Assembly (NCBI GenBank): GCA_040218735.1 | Contig: JAVJQW010000051.1 | Coordinates: forward strand, 1-12,293 | Origin: Deltaproteobacteria bacterium | GTDB taxonomy: Bacteria; Myxococcota; Kuafuiibacteriia; Kuafuiibacteriales; Kuafuiibacteriaceae | Direction of reading: 5' to 3' | Length of the DNA stretch: 12,293 nt | In this document: positions 2,714-12,293 of the stretch, piece after piece | How positions within the stretch are numbered: position 1 is the first letter of the stretch | Layout of the letters: each line of letters begins with the position of its first letter | Notes under the pieces: model-generated | The model's database searches: none | Seen by the model: the letters and a program-made list of their open reading frames with translations, nothing else | What the model was told of the DNA's origin: nothing | Position numbers and translations under genes: made by a program

Positions 2714-3485
2714 GGTGTCTATCCAGTTCTGCCGCAAGGCTGGTGTAGTCCTCAGCGCCACGTGAGCGAGGTGCGAAACGAAGGATATCCTGCGCGGAGC
2801 CGGCTGCGCGCACGAGTTCGGCGTTGGTGCGGATGATGGTCTCGCAGCGTGCGAGCTCGATATCCTGTTGTGCAAGGAAGGACGTCTTCAGGGCGTGGTC
2901 CAGGCTTTCGGACGTCGAATCGTGTAACGAGGTGCGACGATCGTACTGGGTCAGAAGCACGAAGGCGCGGGGAGGCTTCGGGCGCGTCTCGGCGACGGAC
3001 GAGAGGCGGCTTAGCGTGCGAACGAAGCTGTGCGCACCGAAGTACTCGGGTTGCATCGGGATGAGCACGAGATCGGCGAGAAACAGCGTGCTCGTGGTAA
3101 GGAAACCAATGGACGGACGAGTGTCGAAGACGACCCGGTCGTAGCCAGACGGAACCACCTTGTGTTGAAACAGATGGCTCGCTGCGGGATCCGTCACGAG
3201 GGAGTACTCAAGCGGGTCGAGGTCGATTGTCGCAGGCAGGAGGTCAAGATTCTCGCGGACGGAAGCGTGAATTACGCTCTCGGCCGTCGCTTGGCGCTGC
3301 AGAACGCTGGCCAGGGAGCCTGAGAGTTCGTCCGGGTTGAGCCCCAGGTGCAGGGTTGCATTCGCCTGGGGGTCAGCATCGACCAGCAGAGTCTTGTGGC
3401 CGCGGTCCGCTAGCGCCGCAGCCAGATTGACTGCGGTCGTTGTCTTGCCGACGCCGCCCTTGAGGTTGGTAACGGTAATGATCAC
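2706..3485 (-). CDS. parA: ParA/Soj family Walker-type ATPase (259 aa)
   Basis: Deviant Walker A KGGVGKTT, LLVDADPQANAT, YDRVVFDTRPS and C-terminal PRSRGAEDYTSLAAEL. No N-terminal HTH. The GTG start overlaps the rep stop (GTGA). Confidence 0.97.
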   Translation of the reverse strand: MIITVTNLKGGVGKTTTAVNLAAALADRGHKTLLVDADPQANATLHLGLNPDELSGSLASVLQRQATAESVIHASVRENLDLLPATIDLDPLEYSLVTDPAASHLFQHKVVPSGYDRVVFDTRPSIGFLTTSTLFLADLVLIPMQPEYFGAHSFVRTLSRLSSVAETRPKPPRAFVLLTQYDRRTSLHDSTSESLDHALKTSFLAQQDIELARCETIIRTNAELVRAAGSAQDILRFAPRSRGAEDYTSLAAELDRHHD

Positions 3486-5026
3486 TTGGCGCTCTCCAGA
3501 ACGTCGAATCCGTGAAAGTCGCTGAGTCGCGTGCGAAGGGCTGCGACATCAGGCGAACCGTGGAAGTCTTCTCGTGGCATGGCCCCTAGCGTTTCGAGGC
3601 GAAGTTCGTGGACAAGACCGGTGATCATGTTGTCGCGAATGGTTGGGTACGCCAGGCGTCCGGCTGGCAGGTCTTGGTCGGCGCGTACTGTGGCTCGGTC
3701 GAGCAAAGCGCCTTCATCGAGCGGAGTGCGCCTGGCGAGCGCGTCGACGTAGCGAGGCCATAGGGCTTCGACTTCTGCGCGGTCGCGATCGCGATCGCGA
3801 TCGCCTTGGCGACGGCTCCGCTCCGCGACCGCCGCGTCGAGGTAACGCCCTACCCCCTTGAGCCAGAGAATCTGTTCGCCCGACTGCGTTCGTCTGTGCA
3901 GGTCGGCTGCGATGACGATTAGCTCCAAGAGTTCTGCGAGCGGGTACTTCTTGAGCCATTCCCGCGCGGTGCTCAAGTCTGCATCGCGCGGCGGGGGCGG
4001 TTCCGCGGTAGCCGGCAATCCGTGGAACTGCCGTTGGAAGCGAACGACGACATCGTTCGCGGGACCTGAGGGCCGGACCGACCTTCCCTTCCCCCTCTCC
4101 GGCTCGTTGATGACGAGTTCGTTTGTTTGAGCTGCGATTCGCCGAAACGTAAAGCGGAAGTCCTTGGGCCGTCGGTCGACCTCGAGTCGAACCGCAACCC
4201 CCAGGCCGTTCAGTCGGGAGAGCGAATCTGCCACGCGGTCAAGGGCGTAGGCGGATGCGCTACGCCCACCCATCTCGAGCCGGCGCGACTGCAGAAGCAG
4301 TTTGTAGCGCGCGAAGTTCTGGCAGCTGGCAACGACCTGTTCGTCCTTCCGCGCGAGTTGGCGGTCGAGCCAACGATACAGAGTCAAGTCGAGGGGCTTC
4401 TCGATCGCAAGCCAGGTTCGAATGTCCAGCGGCTTTGTATACTGGGCCCGAACGGAGTCATAGATGAAGGAGCCCCAACGAATCTTGAAGGGAGTTCCGA
4501 GGCGAAGCTCCGGTCGCACCTCAATCAGCTGATCGAAGAGAGCGGCGTTGACCTTGATGTGGCGCCCAGCTGCGCGATCGTACCAGCGGTCGTGGTGAAT
4601 GCGAGTGGCGGCGATTCGATAGAGCTCGCGGTGGATCGCTGCGAGAGTACGACCGTTCGGGGCGTACTGGCGGTGCGGGTACATGAACCGCGTGAGCTGC
4701 GACAGTTTGAAGTGGACGTGCGGATCCTCGAAACCGTTCTCCTCGCGAGTCATCCAGAGGAGGGCGAGAACAACTCGCTGCGCGATGGCTGTGGGGAGCG
4801 AATCGCCAGACGTCGCGAGATAGCACGTTCCGTCAGGGGAAAGGTCCGCCGTGCGTCGATTAGGAGTCGTTCGAGGGAGAGTGAAGGGGATCTCAACGAG
4901 GTTGAGTTCGTCGTAAGCGATCCGGTCGACGCGATCGAGCTCGAAGAGTGTTGGCTGCTGCTCGCGCACGTCCATAGACATTCCGCCGAGAGGCTTACGT
5001 AATCCTGTATTTCGGTCAATAGTCAC
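3482..5026 (-). CDS. repA: Plasmid replication initiator protein (RepA, probably 'replication initiator protein A' type)
   Basis: Motifs DELNLVEIPF, LPTAIAQRVVLALL, FKLSQL...NGRTLAAIHRELYRI and YTKPLDIRTWLAIEKPLDLTLYRWLD resemble winged-helix plasmid initiators. Adjacent to iterons and coupled to parAB. Start uncertain (GTG 5026 or the downstream MSMD). Confidence 0.8.
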   Translation of the reverse strand: MTIDRNTGLRKPLGGMSMDVREQQPTLFELDRVDRIAYDELNLVEIPFTLPRTTPNRRTADLSPDGTCYLATSGDSLPTAIAQRVVLALLWMTREENGFEDPHVHFKLSQLTRFMYPHRQYAPNGRTLAAIHRELYRIAATRIHHDRWYDRAAGRHIKVNAALFDQLIEVRPELRLGTPFKIRWGSFIYDSVRAQYTKPLDIRTWLAIEKPLDLTLYRWLDRQLARKDEQVVASCQNFARYKLLLQSRRLEMGGRSASAYALDRVADSLSRLNGLGVAVRLEVDRRPKDFRFTFRRIAAQTNELVINEPERGKGRSVRPSGPANDVVVRFQRQFHGLPATAEPPPPRDADLSTAREWLKKYPLAELLELIVIAADLHRRTQSGEQILWLKGVGRYLDAAVAERSRRQGDRDRDRDRAEVEALWPRYVDALARRTPLDEGALLDRATVRADQDLPAGRLAYPTIRDNMITGLVHELRLETLGAMPREDFHGSPDVAALRTRLSDFHGFDVLESAK

Positions 5027-5096: not shown

Positions 5097-5129
5097 TTTA
5101 GATCATTTAGATCATTTAGATCATTTAGA
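5097..5129. repeat. AT-rich 9-bp tandem repeat (TTTAGATCA x3 + TTTAGA), probable DNA-unwinding element of oriV
   Basis: Read directly from the sequence. Lies between the iterons and the rep start; each full unit contains GATC. Confidence 0.8.
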
Positions 5130-5171
5130 GGCGGAAAAGCTAAGTATTCCTAGTGGGTTACAGGGTGATTT

Positions 5172-5296
5172 TGTCTACTAGGGTGCGTGGATTTGTTCAC
5201 TGACGTGCGTGGATCTGTCTACTGGGGTGCGCGGATTTGTTCACTGACGTGCGTGAAGTTGTACATTGACGTGCGTGGTGTTCACTGACGTGCGCG
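5172..5296. repeat. Six 18-bp iterons (oriV)
   Basis: TGTCTACTAGGGTGCGTG 5172, TGTTCACTGACGTGCGTG 5194, TGTCTACTGGGGTGCGCG 5216, TGTTCACTGACGTGCGTG 5238, TGTACATTGACGTGCGTG 5260, TGTTCACTGACGTGCGCG 5279. Spacing 22, 22, 22, 22, 19 bp. Confidence 0.9.
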
Positions 5297-5365
5297 AAGG
5301 GCGCTCGTCGAGAGCGCTCGGACGTGCAGTGATCTCGGGATGATGAAGGCTACTAGGAGAGCCTG

Positions 5366-5997: not shown

Positions 5998-6300
5998 ATG
6001 CTGAAACGGATTCGCCATCCGCAGGGATGGGTGCGCCTAGTTGTGTTCTGCGCGGTCTTCGCCTTCACGGAGGCCGTCTATGCCCAAAGCGGCTTTCTGC
6101 GCGACATCGAGAGCAAGGCCACGCAGCTCGTCGACGGCGTCTTGGCCGTGGCGAAGGTGGTGCTCATCGCGGCGCTGATCTTCTTCGGTGTGCAGGTCGC
6201 GCGCGGGGACCGCGAGGCGTGGGGCCGGGCGATCGCGGTGTTCGTGGGCATCTTGGTGGTGTTCCAGGCCAAGAACATCATCGCCTGGATCGGCTCCTGA
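5998..6300 (+). CDS. virB2: VirB2/TrbC-family pilin
   Basis: 100 aa with a signal peptide ending AVYA|Q and two hydrophobic helices separated by RGDREAWGR. AAGGA upstream. First gene of the T4SS operon. Confidence 0.85.
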   Translation: MLKRIRHPQGWVRLVVFCAVFAFTEAVYAQSGFLRDIESKATQLVDGVLAVAKVVLIAALIFFGVQVARGDREAWGRAIAVFVGILVVFQAKNIIAWIGS

Positions 6301-6310
6301 GGTCGCGGCG

Positions 6311-6634
6311 ATGCGAAACCGCGTCTACCGGTCGATCGAGGGGCGCAGCCGAGGCCTTCTGGGTTTCGGCGCGCAGGAAGCCGCCTGTGCGGCGCTGACG
6401 GGCGTTCTCGGATTCTGGGTCCTGGGCCCGGCGTTCGGGCTCGCGTCCGCTGTGGGGGCGCTGGGGGGCCTTCTCGCGTGGCGGCGTTCGGACGGCGACC
6501 GAAGCGACTACGTGCAGGCCGCTCGGCGGCGCTGGCTCCAAGGCCGCCGGGTCTACCGGCTCGTCGAAGCCGACGCCGCGGCCTGCGTGCCGGCGATGGC
6601 GCCGAGCTCGCGGACGGGGAGGGGGCAGGGATGA
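6311..6634 (+). CDS. VirB3/TraL-like inner membrane protein (107 aa)
   Basis: MRNRVYRSIEGRSRGLLGF followed by two hydrophobic segments and a basic tail. Directly follows the pilin, with GAGGT upstream of ATG 6311. Confidence 0.7.
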   Translation: MRNRVYRSIEGRSRGLLGFGAQEAACAALTGVLGFWVLGPAFGLASAVGALGGLLAWRRSDGDRSDYVQAARRRWLQGRRVYRLVEADAAACVPAMAPSSRTGRGQG

Positions 6635-7428
6635 TTCGCAAGTTCGGCCTGGTGGCGGCGGCGGAAGCGCTGCCGAAAGAGATTCCTCCGTTTCCTGTGC
6701 CCGACACCGAGTACGTCCGGCTCAGCGTCGGTCGTCGCTGCTTGAAGCCGCAGGAGATCGTCATCGACTGGCGGCTGTTCGAGACGATGCTGTCGCTCAG
6801 CGCCGGCGTGGTCTGGGTGATCGAAGGCCCCAAGTCGCGTGCGGAATTCGATCAGTGCCGGTTGCTGACGGTGTCCGTCGGACCGAAGGGCGACGAAGGC
6901 GGCAGCTGGGACGCTCGGCCGTTGCCGCGGTTTCCGAGCGCGCGGTCGAAGCTGGGCGAAGTCGTCGGTCGAATCTGGCGGCATGCGTTCAAGACGTACG
7001 CGGTCGGTGCGAACACGGGTCACGTGGACGGCTTCGAAGGGATCGAGCAGCGCGTGCTTCAGCGCGTGCGCCCTCGGACGTGGGGGGCGTTGTGGGAAGC
7101 GCTCTGTGTCGATGGGGAAGGGCATCGCATCCGGGCGCCGCAGTACGAGGCGCAACGGCTGTTGCTCCCGTTTTTGGTGGGCCTGACGGGGGCGATCACC
7201 GAGCGTCGCTCGGCGCGGTTTCGGCTGACGGACGGCCACGAATGGGAGCTGCCGCACGCGCAGTACGAGACGCTGCGCTACGCGCTCGAGCTGTTGTGCC
7301 CGATGGGCCTCGGCCCGAACACGCTCACCTTCGAAGGCGTCGAGCGGGCCCATCTCGACCGCTACGCGCCGACCGACGGCGGCGCGTGGCCCTCGCGCAT
7401 CTTCGTGAAGCGGGGGTGGTTCCGATGA
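6631..7428 (+). CDS. Hypothetical cytoplasmic protein A (265 aa), paralog of the next gene; possible degenerate VirB4-like domain
   Basis: ATGA overlaps at both ends, plausible globular composition (MIRKFGLVAAAEALPKE...), and shared sequence blocks with 7425..8189. Confidence 0.8.
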   Translation: MIRKFGLVAAAEALPKEIPPFPVPDTEYVRLSVGRRCLKPQEIVIDWRLFETMLSLSAGVVWVIEGPKSRAEFDQCRLLTVSVGPKGDEGGSWDARPLPRFPSARSKLGEVVGRIWRHAFKTYAVGANTGHVDGFEGIEQRVLQRVRPRTWGALWEALCVDGEGHRIRAPQYEAQRLLLPFLVGLTGAITERRSARFRLTDGHEWELPHAQYETLRYALELLCPMGLGPNTLTFEGVERAHLDRYAPTDGGAWPSRIFVKRGWFR

Positions 7429-8189
7429 TCGCCAGCCAGCACGGGACATCGTCGGTGTGGTTCGAGCGGGATGCGGAGCCCGACGAGGTCCTCGAGCGGG
7501 ACCTCGTCGAGCTGTCGTCCGCGGGGCGTCTTCAGGCGTGCGGTGAGATGGCGCTGCGTACAAAGCTCGCGCGACACGCCGGCTGCTTCTGGAAGATCGA
7601 TAGCTGGCGGACGCCGGTGATGCCGCTGCCGACCACGCTCGCGCAGCGGGTCGACATCAGGCCGCAGCAGCCGGACATCGTCGCGGAGAGCTGCGCGCAC
7701 GGCATGCCGGAGCCCACGTCGGCGGTGGGGCAGGTGGTGGGCCGGATGTGGCGTTGCGCGTTGCGCGCGTACGTCGTCGAGGGCGCGCCGCCGTGGCAGC
7801 TCGATGCGTTCGAGTCTCTGCTGGCGAGCTTCGCGTTCGCGCACGCGGCGTCGTCGTGGGGTGAGCTCGAGCGCAGCGTCCGCGCGCACTACGCGCACGA
7901 GCACGGGCTGTCGATGCGTGAGGCGAGCGCGCTCGATGCGTGCGTGCCCTTCTTGCGCGAGCTGACGGACGTCGTCGTGCAGCGTGGCTCGGCGCACATC
8001 GTGTTCGAGGGCTTCGACGATCCGAAGCTCCGAATGGCGGGCGTGCATGCACTCTGTCTCGCGCTGGAGTGGCTCCCTCGTATAGCGCTCGCGCCGGAAA
8101 CGGTGCTGCTCGAAGGGTGGGGCCCCGGCACGCCCCGAATCGACTGGCCACGCTCGGTGTCGTTCACGAGCGTGCGGAGGCTTTCGTGA
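7425..8189 (+). CDS. Hypothetical cytoplasmic protein B (254 aa), paralog of the previous gene
   Basis: ATG 7425 overlaps the previous stop (MIASQHGTSSVWFERD...); its own stop overlaps the virB4 start (TGATG). Confidence 0.8.
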   Translation: MIASQHGTSSVWFERDAEPDEVLERDLVELSSAGRLQACGEMALRTKLARHAGCFWKIDSWRTPVMPLPTTLAQRVDIRPQQPDIVAESCAHGMPEPTSAVGQVVGRMWRCALRAYVVEGAPPWQLDAFESLLASFAFAHAASSWGELERSVRAHYAHEHGLSMREASALDACVPFLRELTDVVVQRGSAHIVFEGFDDPKLRMAGVHALCLALEWLPRIALAPETVLLEGWGPGTPRIDWPRSVSFTSVRRLS

Positions 8190-10666
8190 TGGTCGCCGCG
8201 AAGTTGTTCGCGGCGCCGTCGCTGCTGCCGCTGTGGGACGTGCTCGACACCGGCGACATCGTCACGTCGCGCGGTCAGCTGCTCCGCGCGTACGCGCTCA
8301 CGGGTCTCGACTCGGAGCATCGTCCCGCCGCCGAGCTCGAAGCCGCGGCGGCGCAGCTGTACGCCGGTCACGGCGAGCTCGCGGACGGCGCGTTCTTGCA
8401 GTTCGTGGTCGAGGGGCACGACCGCTACGACGACGTGTTCGCCGCGTTCGATGCGGTGCCGCCGCCGGACGACCGCGTGCTGCGGCTTCAGCGCAAACGC
8501 CGCGTGGACTTCCTGCGGTCGAGTGGCCTTCGCCGCTTCGACACCACGCTCGTCGTCGGTCACGTCGAAGGCTTCACGCGCAGCGCGTTTCGACAGCTGT
8601 CGGAGCGCGAGGTCGAGGCGCGCCGCCACGCATCGCGCGAGGTTGGCCGTAGCGTGGTGGGCCTGCTCGAGCGCGCCGGCGTGCGCGCGCGTCTGCTCGG
8701 ACGCGAAGCGATCCTGCGGTCGCTGCATCGCGGCCTGAATCCGTCGCGTGACTTCGCGTGGGCGTGCGATCAGAGCGTCTTCGACGACGACGGCCGCATC
8801 CGTTGGCTGTCGTGCCGCGAGCGCCTCTTCGAGTCGGCGATCGAGGGCGACGTCGACCACGTCCGCTGCGGCGCGCGCTTTCATAAGGTGCTCGTCTTGC
8901 GCGGACTTCCGGACGCCACGCGGTTCACGTTGCCCGAGGCGCTCCTTCACCTGCCGGTCGCGTTTCGCGCGAGCGTCAATTTCATCGTGCCCGACCAGGC
9001 GCGGGCGGGGGCGGTGTTCGAGCAGCATCGTCGTCTCGCGCACGGCGCGACCGGTCGCGACAAGTACGTCGAGGACGCCGGCCGGGCAGGGCGGGTCCGT
9101 GAAGCGAACGCGCTCGCCGAGCTGCTCGCCGAGACGGGACAGAAGCTCGTGCAGGTGGGGATGCAGCTCGTCGTCAGCGGCGAGTCGCCCGAGCTCGTCC
9201 GCGACGAAGCCGAGCAGGCGATCGAGCATCTCAAGCGCTACGGGCTGACCTTCATCGAAGAGACGGCCCGCCACGACGTGGAGCTGCCGAAGACGCTGCC
9301 GGGCATGGCCGTCGCCTTCGACCGGCACAAGCTCGTCACGTCGAACAACGCCTTCGACTTGATGCCCGTCTTCGGCGGTCGGCACGGCGATCGCGATCCG
9401 GTCCTCCTCGTGAAGACGGCTCGCGAGGAGCTGTTCAGCTTCAACCCGGTCGAGCGCGCCCGTGACAACTGGAACGCGACCGTCTTCGGTGCGAGCGGCT
9501 CCGGCAAGAGCGTCACGATGAACATGCTCATCGCGACGGCGATGCTCGCGAACGTGACCCGCGGCCGCGTCATGGTCGTGGACTTCGCGGGCGAGACGAA
9601 GAGCTCGTACCTGCAGGTCGCGCGGCTGTTCGGGGGGCAGTTCGTTCCGGTCGTGAGCCGCGAAGCGGGCGTGGCGATCAATCCGTTCCCGCCGCCGGCA
9701 GTGGCCCTCGACGAAGCGGGGGCGCTCAAGAGCGAGCACCTCAACTTCCTCCTGGTCCTCACGGACCTGCTCCTCACGAACACCGGCGACGACATGGACG
9801 CGGCGCTGCACCGGCAGCTGCTGCAACGCGCGCTGCAGCGCTGCTACGAGGGGCGCACCACGCGCGACGGCGCGCCGACGTACGTCGACATGGCGAAGGT
9901 GCTCGAGGCGATGCGCGGTGCCTCGGACGTCGACCGGGATCGCCTCGAACGCATCCGCAGCCTGCTCGCCGGCTTCCTCGAGAGCCCGGACTCCCGGTTC
10001 TTCACGAAGCCTTCGAACGTCGTCGCCGATGCCTCGTTCGTGATCTTCGACCTCTTCGGCATCGACGGCCTCGCGCCGCAGACGCGCGAAGCGCTGGTCT
10101 TCTTGGTGACCGAATACGTGAAGCGGGTCGCGTTCGGAGAGGAGGGCATCAGGTACGTCGTCCTCGACGAGGTGGCGCAGCTCCTTCGGCGCCCCGAGAT
10201 GCGGCGGCTCGTCGACGAGCTGTACGCGACGGCGCGAAAGCACCGCACCTCGGTGTGGACCGTGACGCAGAACTACGGCTCGTACGTCGAAAGCGGCCTA
10301 CACGAGGTTGTGAAGCTCAACTCGACCACGCAGCTGTTCCTCAGCCACGCGAACGCCGCCGACGTCCGTGGCCGCGTGGCCGACGACTTCGACTTCAACG
10401 AACGCGAGCGGGTCCTGTTCGAACGGCTCGTCACGAAGAAGGGCGACTACTCCGAGGCGTTGATTCGCACCCAGTGCGTCAACGAGCTCGGCGACAAGGA
10501 GCCCGTCACGGCGCGCCTGAGGATCGAGCTGAGTCCCTTCGACTACCAGCTCGCAACGAGCGACGCCGCGGACCGCGAGCGACAGAAGAAGTGGATCGAA
10601 CAGAACCCGACCGCGCCCCTCGCGGCGGTCCTCGATGCGCTGGCGAGAAAGTGGGCGTCCGAATGA
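8189..10666 (+). CDS. virB4: VirB4/TraC-family T4SS ATPase (825 aa)
   Basis: Walker A NATVFGASGSGKS, VMVVD, INPF, Walker B YVVLDEV and ARKHRTSVWTVTQ. GGAGG at 8176-8180 supports ATG 8189 (or GTG 8186). Confidence 0.95.
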   Translation: MVAAKLFAAPSLLPLWDVLDTGDIVTSRGQLLRAYALTGLDSEHRPAAELEAAAAQLYAGHGELADGAFLQFVVEGHDRYDDVFAAFDAVPPPDDRVLRLQRKRRVDFLRSSGLRRFDTTLVVGHVEGFTRSAFRQLSEREVEARRHASREVGRSVVGLLERAGVRARLLGREAILRSLHRGLNPSRDFAWACDQSVFDDDGRIRWLSCRERLFESAIEGDVDHVRCGARFHKVLVLRGLPDATRFTLPEALLHLPVAFRASVNFIVPDQARAGAVFEQHRRLAHGATGRDKYVEDAGRAGRVREANALAELLAETGQKLVQVGMQLVVSGESPELVRDEAEQAIEHLKRYGLTFIEETARHDVELPKTLPGMAVAFDRHKLVTSNNAFDLMPVFGGRHGDRDPVLLVKTAREELFSFNPVERARDNWNATVFGASGSGKSVTMNMLIATAMLANVTRGRVMVVDFAGETKSSYLQVARLFGGQFVPVVSREAGVAINPFPPPAVALDEAGALKSEHLNFLLVLTDLLLTNTGDDMDAALHRQLLQRALQRCYEGRTTRDGAPTYVDMAKVLEAMRGASDVDRDRLERIRSLLAGFLESPDSRFFTKPSNVVADASFVIFDLFGIDGLAPQTREALVFLVTEYVKRVAFGEEGIRYVVLDEVAQLLRRPEMRRLVDELYATARKHRTSVWTVTQNYGSYVESGLHEVVKLNSTTQLFLSHANAADVRGRVADDFDFNERERVLFERLVTKKGDYSEALIRTQCVNELGDKEPVTARLRIELSPFDYQLATSDAADRERQKKWIEQNPTAPLAAVLDALARKWASE

Positions 10667-11643
10667 CTCGCCTTGACGAAGCGGCCTGCGTCTCGACGGT
10701 GCAGCGCACCGGCGAAGGGCAGAGCGGCACGGCGCATGGACAGACTCGCCGCACGAGCCAACCGATCCGACTCATCGGGGGAGCGATCCTTGCCGTGACC
10801 CTCGCGATCCCTCGGCCGGCCTACGCGCTGTTCGGGGAGGAGGATTGGATCTCCGGCCAGAACCAGACGCTCATGGCGTTGCTCTGGGAGGAGCTCGAGC
10901 ACACCACCCAGCTATCCACCCTGATCGCCAACGCGAAGTTCATGGTGGGCTCGGTCAACGAGCTGCTCGCGCTGGCGCGCACCGCGCGGCGCGTCTTCGA
11001 GGCGATCAAGAACTACGACCTCAAGACGCTCGAACGCGACGTCCTCCAGAGCCTTTACCGCGCGATCCCGGAGAGTCAGGAGCTCGCCCAAGAGATCGAC
11101 ACGCTCTACCGCGACGGCCGCGCGATCCACGAGGGCAAGTTCTGGACGCGCATCGGCGCCAAGGACGCGAAGGTCTCGTACCAGGCGAGGAAGCTCTGGG
11201 AGCACGGCTACAAAGCCACGCTGTGGCCGCTCGTCCTGCCGGGCGAGGGCCACCTGCGCCGCGGACCGAGCATCGTCGAGGCGAAGGTCGCGACGCGCTA
11301 CCAGGTGAGCGGTGACGAGGCGCGCCGCGCCTTCGAGCAGAGCGCGATCGCGATCCTCGCCGGCAAGGTGCAGGCGTTCGCGGCGGACGCGGAGCTCAAG
11401 GACCGCGTCGACCTCAAGCGCGAGGCGACCCGCGCGCAGCTCGAGCTTCAGCGCACCGCGGATGCCGCCGAGCTTCGTCGACTTCGCGAGCAGGCCGTCG
11501 CCGAGGACCAAAACGAGCGCGAGGCGCTCGAGTCCTTCCAGCGCCAGATGTCCGGCGGCCTTCGCGCCGGCGCCGAAGACCTCGTCGGTCCGCCTCGCTG
11601 GGCGGACCGCAAGCCCACGAGGAGGTCGGCATGGATCTGGTGA
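10663..11643 (+). CDS. Exported helical T4SS protein, VirB5/TrbJ-like by position
   Basis: ATGA overlap with virB4, signal-like LIGGAILAVTLAIPRPAYA|LF, coiled-coil-like body, located between virB4 and a VirB6-like gene. Start uncertain. Confidence 0.6.
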   Translation: MTRLDEAACVSTVQRTGEGQSGTAHGQTRRTSQPIRLIGGAILAVTLAIPRPAYALFGEEDWISGQNQTLMALLWEELEHTTQLSTLIANAKFMVGSVNELLALARTARRVFEAIKNYDLKTLERDVLQSLYRAIPESQELAQEIDTLYRDGRAIHEGKFWTRIGAKDAKVSYQARKLWEHGYKATLWPLVLPGEGHLRRGPSIVEAKVATRYQVSGDEARRAFEQSAIAILAGKVQAFAADAELKDRVDLKREATRAQLELQRTADAAELRRLREQAVAEDQNEREALESFQRQMSGGLRAGAEDLVGPPRWADRKPTRRSAWIW

Positions 11644-12293
11644 AGATCGACACCTCGATGCTCACGCCGTTCTTGGCGATGGGGCGCGCGATCTTGGGGC
11701 TCGCGTTCGCGCTGTGGATCTTGCGCGAGACGTTCGAGCTGGCGACCAAGGGCCGCTGCGACTTCGCGCGGCCGTTGATCCGGGTCGCGTTCGCCTACGC
11801 GCTCCTGTCGGCCCTGCCGACGATCGGTGCGTGGGCGGCGAGTGCCGCCGCCGAAGGCGGGACGACGATGTTCGCAGCGAACGAGTCGCGTCTGTTCGTC
11901 GCCGCCTACGAACACGCTGTACAAAACCAGATCGGTCCCGCCGCGGAGCCTGGGTCGACGATGGAGATCCTTGGCGCGGTCTCCAGCCTCTTCACGGTCC
12001 GCGGCCTCGTGAATCAGCTGTCGATGATCGTGTACCTCGGCATGCAGGCCAGCAAGCTGGTCGTGCTGCATGTCCTGTGGCCGGTCTGCCTGAGCCTTGT
12101 GGTCGTCGGCGGCACGATCGCCGTCCCGCTCGGCGCCATTCCGGGGAGCAAGGGCATCGAGGGGTGGATCAAGAACCTCGTCGAGGTGTCGCTGTGGCCG
12201 CTCGTCTTCAACGTGATCTTGTCGCTGATGGTCGCCTCGCTCGCGGGGCTCCTGCGGCAGGTGCAGACGATCGACTTTGCGACCCTCTTCGAT
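11631..12293 (+). CDS. VirB6/TrbL-like polytopic membrane protein, truncated at the right edge
   Basis: Not in the ORF track. GGAGG at 11621-11625 and ATG 11631, open for 221 codons (MDLVKIDTSMLTPFLAMGRAILGLAFALWIL...GTIAVPLGAIPGSKGIEGWIKNLVEVSLWPLVF). The late G.ia.pl..iP...gW segment is typical of VirB6-like proteins. Confidence 0.8.
   Translation, partial: MDLVKIDTSMLTPFLAMGRAILGLAFALWILRETFELATKGRCDFARPLIRVAFAYALLSALPTIGAWAASAAAEGGTTMFAANESRLFVAAYEHAVQNQIGPAAEPGSTMEILGAVSSLFTVRGLVNQLSMIVYLGMQASKLVVLHVLWPVCLSLVVVGGTIAVPLGAIPGSKGIEGWIKNLVEVSLWPLVFNVILSLMVASLAGLLRQVQTIDFATLFD

Follow-up and report, generated by a model that had tools for sequence, protein, structure and literature searches.

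Two paralogous soluble proteins encoded at a virB3-virB4 junction, tentatively related to type IV secretion motor ATPases

We analyzed contig JAVJQW010000051.1 (here C30) of a deltaproteobacterial assembly (GCA_040218735.1; 11.6 Mb in 70 contigs), the entire 12,293 bp of which form the window described here, with a focus on two genes, A and B, that lie between virB3 and virB4 of a type IV secretion system (T4SS) operon. The operon begins on the plus strand with a VirB2/TrbC-type pilin gene (positions 5998 to 6300; Pfam TrbC PF04956, E value of 1.8e-13), followed by a gene for a VirB3-like small membrane protein of 107 amino acids (aa) (6311 to 6634), A (6631 to 7428; 265 aa, soluble), B (7425 to 8189; 254 aa, soluble), and the gene of an 826-aa VirB4/TraC-type ATPase with the Walker A motif GASGSGKS at residue 435 (8186 to 10666). 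The VirB3-like protein contains a hydrophobic stretch (19-residue Kyte-Doolittle value of 1.74) and had no match in Pfam or NCBIfam; it is so labeled by its position, its size, and the similar small hydrophobic open reading frames (ORFs) that abut virB4 in 11 of 11 related loci. The original prediction, made by inspection of this DNA alone, held that A and B may be catalytically dead copies of the neighboring VirB4 ATPase domain. Its identification of the neighbor was confirmed by matches to Pfam TraC_F_IV (1e-10) and P-loop_TraG (9.5e-10), to NCBIfam TraC-F-type (4.6e-50) and VirB4_CagE (9.6e-34), both under the curated cutoffs, and to Protein Data Bank (PDB) entry 4ag5 (E value of 1.9e-9). 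From virB3 to virB4 the four genes share one strand with zero intergenic gap and overlapping codons: ATGA joins the VirB3-like stop to the A start (6631 to 6634) and the A stop to the B start (7425 to 7428), and GTGATG joins the B stop to the VirB4 start (8186 to 8191). A and B thus have the arrangement of operon components.

A and B are real genes for soluble proteins, presumably cotranslated. Their third codon positions are rich in GC (0.85 in A and 0.88 in B), the codon-position GC pattern equals that of the neighboring genes, and neither protein has a hydrophobic segment (highest 19-residue Kyte-Doolittle means of 1.28 and 1.33). That the two ORFs are paralogs, as had been proposed, was borne out by BLASTP (30% identity across 138 aa; E value of 9e-14) and by a local alignment score 18.7 standard deviations above shuffled sequences. 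In the five family members found in total, the reading frames are intact despite divergence to 27 to 28% identity, and 44 alignment columns, including four tryptophans, are invariant.

Outside these few members the family is an orphan. When B was searched with phmmer against 1.84 billion representative sequences, the only two matches were A and a copy with 71% identity. One further B-type protein, P0105, came from a profile search of 5.8 billion proteins; it is 55% identical to B and is encoded on another contig; this contig of 16,768 bases probably also encodes a VirB4 that is 90% identical over the searched C-terminal part. A word-based search with A found nothing outside the family, and scans of genome contigs and metagenome contigs with the family alignment found nothing further. 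No member was present in 19 further genomes from this order, none was detected by tblastn in 72,556 plasmids, and the family hidden Markov model had no match among the six-frame ORFs of 19 related T4SS loci. We inspected the region upstream of virB4 in 11 of these 19 loci (L011 to L013 were not inspected, L024 and L025 have no upstream flank, and L034 to L036 are matches of 23 to 24%). In all 11, the virB4 start directly follows or overlaps a small hydrophobic ORF of the VirB3 type, and an A/B-type gene therefore appears to have been inserted into an otherwise fixed virB3-virB4 junction. A and B are not a conserved core of this T4SS type, since they are not found at the same place in related loci. 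The closest related element encodes a coupling-protein homolog (L039; G015:C75:1033-2784) with 51% identity and one in-frame TGA; in this element VirB3 and VirB4 are directly adjacent, and nothing like A or B separates them.

Near-identical DNA does occur in other samples. Three metagenome runs of one separate study (P2) hold 0.73 to 0.92 of the sampled words, and one run of another study (P3) holds 0.36, most of its contigs fitting partly; both A-containing and A-less arrangements occur among these runs. The sole genome-contig match to VirB4, a 525-bp contig (L023) from a separately labeled metagenome-assembled genome, encodes the last 83 residues of VirB4 at 99% identity; this element or a near-identical one is present in another bin or sample. 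Besides contigs identical to A, runs X2 to X4 contain contigs that differ at 20 of 325 nucleotides between positions 6912 and 7236 (∼94% identity), which shows that A has a second natural allele. A joint from 7428 to 8193 that skips B was seen in the same three runs, all of one study; it has 25 to 33 letters on its shorter side, may be a repeat or assembly artifact, and was not used.

The same assembly contains two more elements, on contigs C3 and C7, with a virB2-virB3-B-virB4 block and one paralog each. Relative to these, A corresponds to 857 extra nucleotides in C30 (6593 to 7450), and among the three only C30 has A. The three look like coresident plasmids with distinct maintenance modules and a common transfer module. 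Identity to the C30 proteins is 38 to 50% for Rep and 36 to 38% for ParA, and the ParB-like ORF of C30 has no match in C3 or C7; identity is 94 to 97% for the N terminus of the coupling protein, 92 to 94% for VirB2, 86 to 89% for VirB3, and 97 to 98% for the N-terminal 329 aa of VirB4. B is only 71 to 72% identical (C3, 5599 to 6360; C7, 5891 to 6652), and nucleotide identity, 72 to 88% across B, jumps to 92 to 97% at the virB4 boundary. The ratio of nonsynonymous to synonymous substitution rates (dN/dS) of B was 0.47 to 0.48 for C30 against C3 or C7 and 0.20 for C3 against C7, compared with 0.05 to 0.07 for the N-terminal part of VirB4. We conclude that B is a sharp divergence hotspot, a fast-evolving yet still constrained gene.

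The original prediction had matched short motifs of A and B by eye to those of VirB4. All of the quoted motifs exist, in colinear order and with similar spacing: Walker A at residue 435 of VirB4, followed by motifs at 460, 563, 588, 616, and 656, with counterparts at 32, 59, 148, 173, and 230 in A and at 31, 53, 171, 189, and 225 in B. The Walker A pattern GxxGxGK[ST] is present in 69 of 69 VirB4 homologs and in none of the five family members, and the Walker B pattern hhhhD[DE] is likewise missing from all five, the equivalent predicted strand ending in an invariant E-G. The would-be P-loop of A (SVGRRCLKP, residues 32 to 40; 6724 to 6750, plus strand) lacks GK[ST] and lies between a predicted strand (residues 27 to 30) and a predicted helix (47 to 57); that of B (SSAGRLQAC, residues 31 to 39; 7515 to 7541, plus strand) also lacks GK[ST] and is in a region where the predicted local distance difference test score (pLDDT) is below 50 and the structure is uninformative. 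At the Walker B-equivalent position, A has NTLTFEGV (residues 230 to 237; 7318 to 7341, plus strand), with EG in place of DE on a predicted strand spanning 231 to 237, and B has ETVLLEGW (residues 225 to 232; 8097 to 8120, plus strand), with a predicted strand spanning 226 to 230. Lacking both the lysine of Walker A and the acidic pair of Walker B, A and B presumably cannot hydrolyze ATP. The claim that the catalytic motifs are absent thus stands, and "catalytically dead" describes both proteins; homology to ATPases is not established.

AlphaFold2 was run without templates on alignments of 4 and 5 rows, the A and B models sharing alignment rows, and the resulting models are poor and of low confidence (for A, pLDDT of 58.1 and predicted TM-score of 0.64; for B, 56.1 and 0.57, with residues 1 to 73 below pLDDT 50). 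The two models have a common predicted element order: strand, loop, helix, strand(s), four long helices, strand, helix, strand, and final strand. The best-modeled part of each is the predicted four-helix bundle, which spans residues 107 to 191 of A (6949 to 7203, plus strand; helices 107 to 126, 132 to 146, 151 to 163, and 169 to 191; pLDDT of 59 to 83) and residues 100 to 186 of B (7722 to 7982, plus strand; helices 100 to 117, 123 to 139, 145 to 157, and 164 to 186; pLDDT of 61 to 79). The predicted strands coincide with the "strand" motifs of the original prediction, SAHIVFE, TVLLEG, and TLTFEGV. In Foldseek searches, Thermoanaerobacter VirB4 was found at ranks 2, 7, and 17 for B, with the best TM-scores of the list (0.31 to 0.35), and the top 50 matches also held two HerA entries and a chain of the Legionella coupling complex. 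For A, VirB4 chain 4ag5_C ranked 10th, and no other match in the list had a higher TM-score or probability. The ESM Atlas structures (pLDDT of 0.33 to 0.34) gave no match above a TM-score of 0.37; among the seven named feature sets for B, six are P-loop NTPase families, at 0.81 to 0.83 and hence below the bar of 0.9, and A had no usable feature match.

Structural alignments ran from A residues 6 to 265 to TrwB 105 to 388 and from B residues 15 to 254 to TrwB 81 to 383. In TrwB chain indices, the Walker A lysine is at 66, the Walker B D-E pair is at 286 and 287, and the next strand is at 309 to 314; we take the offset from chain index to entry numbering to be +70, from the ΔN70 construct and the lysine being K136. 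With a register derived from these ranges, which assumes few gaps and has no residue-level alignment behind it, residues 32 to 40 of A would lie near the TrwB P-loop (∼130 to 137 if ungapped), the invariant hhhhEG strand of both proteins would lie at the TrwB Walker B strand, and their last strand would lie at the TrwB strand that follows. Residues 73 to 239 of B aligned to 288 to 475 of VirB4 chain 4ag6_C, in which the Walker B D-E pair has chain indices 269 and 270, presumably residues 471 and 472 if the construct begins at residue 203 (which fits the chain length of 392). The 225-to-232 strand of B may therefore lie no more than a few residues away from the Walker B D-E pair in both VirB4 and TrwB.

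From the missing motifs and these fold comparisons we tentatively favor, at slightly less than an even chance, the reading that A and B are truncated, noncatalytic, extremely diverged relatives of the nucleotide-binding and helical-bundle domains of T4SS motor ATPases. Their source could be VirB4 or equally a VirD4/TrwB-type protein, because TrwB scores at least as well as VirB4. Of the original idea of dead VirB4 copies, the absence of catalytic motifs holds, descent from VirB4 itself is not supported by sequence, and the fold offers weak evidence. Several results weigh against this reading. By no sequence measure applied did the by-eye similarity to VirB4 exceed chance: BLASTP to VirB4 gave E values of 0.83 and 8.0, the local-alignment z scores against the C-terminal part of VirB4 were 0.84 for A and −0.67 for B, and the best colinear chain of the six VirB4 motifs (picked post hoc, which favors them) was reached in 53 (A) and 7 (B) of 300 shuffles. 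A profile-profile chain of three VirB4 blocks was equaled by 69 of 300 column shuffles. The profile similarity to VirB4 or to type IV coupling proteins (T4CP) that had been named as a check was absent: hhalign of the family against 69 VirB4 sequences gave a probability of 0.2 to 0.3% (P of 0.23 to 0.38), and against a 9-sequence profile of the clade's own coupling protein it gave a P of 0.81, on a level with the reversed family alignment used as a control (P of 0.22 to 0.40). As a positive control, the coupling protein matched the C-terminal part of VirB4 with a probability of 98.5% (E value of 3e-15). A and B had no match in Pfam, NCBIfam, PHROGs, or PADLOC, and a PDB profile search returned nothing except FrnE at an E value of 1.1. 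The structural check came out mixed: VirB4 stands high in the match lists, but the models are of low confidence and neither had a Foldseek match at an E value of 0.001. The fold evidence is weaker for A than for B, and the A model also matches glucokinase and a macrodomain. Finally, the alignments stop at TrwB 383 to 388 and at residue 690 of TrwK, TrwB reaching at least chain index 424 (residue 494), and the ATPase core past Walker B is incomplete in A and B, which end one strand after the Walker B-like strand.

Alternatively, A and B may share no ancestry with VirB4 and VirD4 and instead be accessory proteins of the T4SS, specific to this lineage, in which a generic Rossmann-like alpha/beta core is combined with a helical bundle; the resemblance would then be convergent or a model artifact. 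We regard this as quite possible although, on balance, doubtful: the negative profile tests and the glucokinase and macrodomain matches of A are what it would lead one to expect, but T4SS ATPases, a tiny share of the PDB, lead the two match lists of B and turn up again for A, where their alignments are the longest, and the predicted strands fall on motifs that had been matched to VirB4 ahead of any model. It is very improbable that A, B, or both are nonfunctional, as chance ORFs in GC-rich DNA or decaying remnants. High-GC DNA is rich in long spurious ORFs and the constraint on B is relaxed, but the codon-position GC pattern resembles that of the neighbors, dN/dS is below 1, start and stop codons overlap on both sides, intact frames with the invariant columns persist across all five members, and near-identical DNA recurs in the three runs of study P2.

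Passenger or plasmid-competition genes (exclusion, incompatibility linked, or antidefense), with divergence driven by conflict among coresident plasmids, would account for several of the observations above. B is the divergence hotspot of the block, in protein (71 to 72%, against 97 to 98% for the VirB4 N-terminal part and 92 to 94% for VirB2), in nucleotide identity (72 to 88%, against 92 to 97% for virB4), and in dN/dS (0.47 to 0.48, against 0.05); copy number varies, A being present or absent; and a gene missing from 11 of 11 related loci is therefore dispensable for this T4SS type. Known entry-exclusion proteins carry a signal peptide, a lipobox, or a transmembrane segment. A and B have none of these, and an entry-exclusion or lipoprotein identity was rejected for the absence of a hydrophobic segment. 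There was also no PADLOC match, and a passenger gene would not usually show such tight translational coupling inside the virB2-virB3-virB4 block. We consider this explanation unlikely.

If A and B are diverged motor-domain relatives, one small plasmid lineage would have acquired a B-type gene at the virB3-virB4 junction of its operon, and the C30 element would now have two copies of it, A and B. Through the overlapping stop and start codons the two would be cotranslated with VirB3 and VirB4 and, as this coupling suggests, made together with the inner membrane complex. In the R388 inner membrane complex, as described, VirB4 forms dimers, with VirB3 around the VirB4 N-terminal domain and with VirB8 tails (PMC9259494). 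A and B might act there as accessory subunits of the cytoplasmic energy center, binding VirB4, the coupling protein, or both, with their conserved helical bundle as a binding surface much as the all-alpha domain of coupling proteins serves for substrates (as reported in PMC8740702 and PMC7431656). Because the bundle parallels that substrate-binding domain and B diverges between plasmids, a role as adaptor or specificity factor at the energy center of VirB4 and the T4CP is, from context, the most attractive mechanism, although a regulatory role may also be envisaged. A fuller picture, in which A and B are mini pseudo-ATPases whose partial RecA-like core docks while the rapidly evolving bundle gives each coresident plasmid, all with a nearly identical T4SS and coupling protein, its own substrate or partner specificity at that energy center, is improbable as a whole. 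A complex prediction of B with VirB4 residues 400 to 826 scored 0.00 in two runs without controls and carries no weight on binding.

Among known systems, the nearest parallel is RvhB4-II of the Rickettsiales rvh T4SS, reported to lack ATPase active sites and to evolve faster than RvhB4-I; like A and B as we read them, it is a T4SS-encoded VirB4-family paralog with dead sites and fast evolution, and it is thought to be a nonenzymatic part of the machine (PMC4676284). RvhB4-II is full length and plainly a VirB4, whereas A and B, of 254 to 265 aa beside an 826-aa VirB4, have no sequence or profile match to it, would correspond to no more than the beginning of the ATPase core together with the bundle, and occur at the virB3-virB4 junction of one plasmid lineage. 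Rather than belonging to the RvhB4-II group, they would represent a new variant in miniature. From the cytoplasmic domain of TrwB/VirD4 (nucleotide-binding plus all-alpha domain; PDB 1e9r and 1gl7), A and B differ in having no Walker A or B motif, no transmembrane anchor, and no region past approximately TrwB 383 to 388, with a profile P of 0.81 against their own T4CP family. They likewise lack the N-terminal domain and catalytic motifs of VirB4, and their scores against its C-terminal domain (PDB 4ag5 and 4ag6 of Thermoanaerobacter and 7o42, TrwK of R388) are in the noise range. EccC of the type VII secretion system offers the concept of an active domain under the control of degenerate FtsK-like neighbors. 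Its inactive ATPase domains are fused in one chain, are recognizable P-loop domains, and bind nucleotide, whereas A and B are separate proteins in which nothing points to nucleotide binding. The CagZ-Cagβ pair of Helicobacter pylori (PDB 8dol) offers a parallel: going by the title of the entry, a small soluble T4SS-encoded protein regulates a T4SS ATPase.

We found no published description of a gene of this kind between virB3 and virB4, although no search was aimed there, and a literature search for degenerate or inactive ATPase wording together with type IV secretion or VirB4 returned no paper. To our knowledge, the only catalytically dead VirB4 paralogs described are the full-length ones of the Rickettsiales rvh system, whose role is unsolved. 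Should A and B prove to be pseudo-ATPase modules that are truncated and free-standing, dead T4SS motor subunits would have a second representative, and a much simpler one. The role of such subunits would become testable by deletion and allele swapping, with natural variants at hand that have one copy, two copies, or, among related T4SS loci, no copy; the plasmids that carry A and B may turn out to be tractable. It would also mean that remnants of motor domains can drift past sequence recognition while being retained in an operon. Should the similarity in fold be spurious, a modest but real finding is left, namely, a fast-evolving, orphan family of accessory genes inserted at the virB3-virB4 junction.

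The rest of the window has a plasmid-type backbone. On the minus strand lie the gene of a TrwB-type coupling protein (1 to 1017; Pfam TrwB_AAD_bind, E value of 9.4e-17), a ParB-like ORF that has no Pfam match and is named only for its adjacency to ParA (1775 to 2875), the ParA gene (Pfam AAA_31, E value of 4.2e-42), and a RepA-like initiator gene (3482 to 5026; Pfam RPA, E value of 1.2e-5, under the Pfam cutoff). The coupling-protein gene is an N-terminal piece of 339 aa, and a 97%-identical copy runs on in contig C47. The breaks of contigs C30, C3, C7, C2, and C47 fall inside shared genes (in virB4, at residue 329, and in the T4CP gene). Between the rep gene and the T4SS operon are a 9-nucleotide unit, TTTAGATCA, repeated 3.7 times (5097 to 5129), and approximately five iteron-like 22-nucleotide direct repeats (5165 to 5299), which together are likely a replication origin. 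A 57-nucleotide unit repeated 3.0 times at 99% identity (1599 to 1767) adjoins and slightly passes the 3′ end of the ParB-like ORF and is a candidate centromere (parS-like) site. Downstream of virB4 lie the gene of a 326-aa protein with one hydrophobic segment by eye (10663 to 11640) and a gene left open at the contig end whose product appears by eye to be multipass hydrophobic (11631 to 12293). Neither has a Pfam match; both have 96 to 98% identical copies on contig C2, and they may encode VirB5/TrbJ-like and VirB6/TrbL-like parts, respectively.

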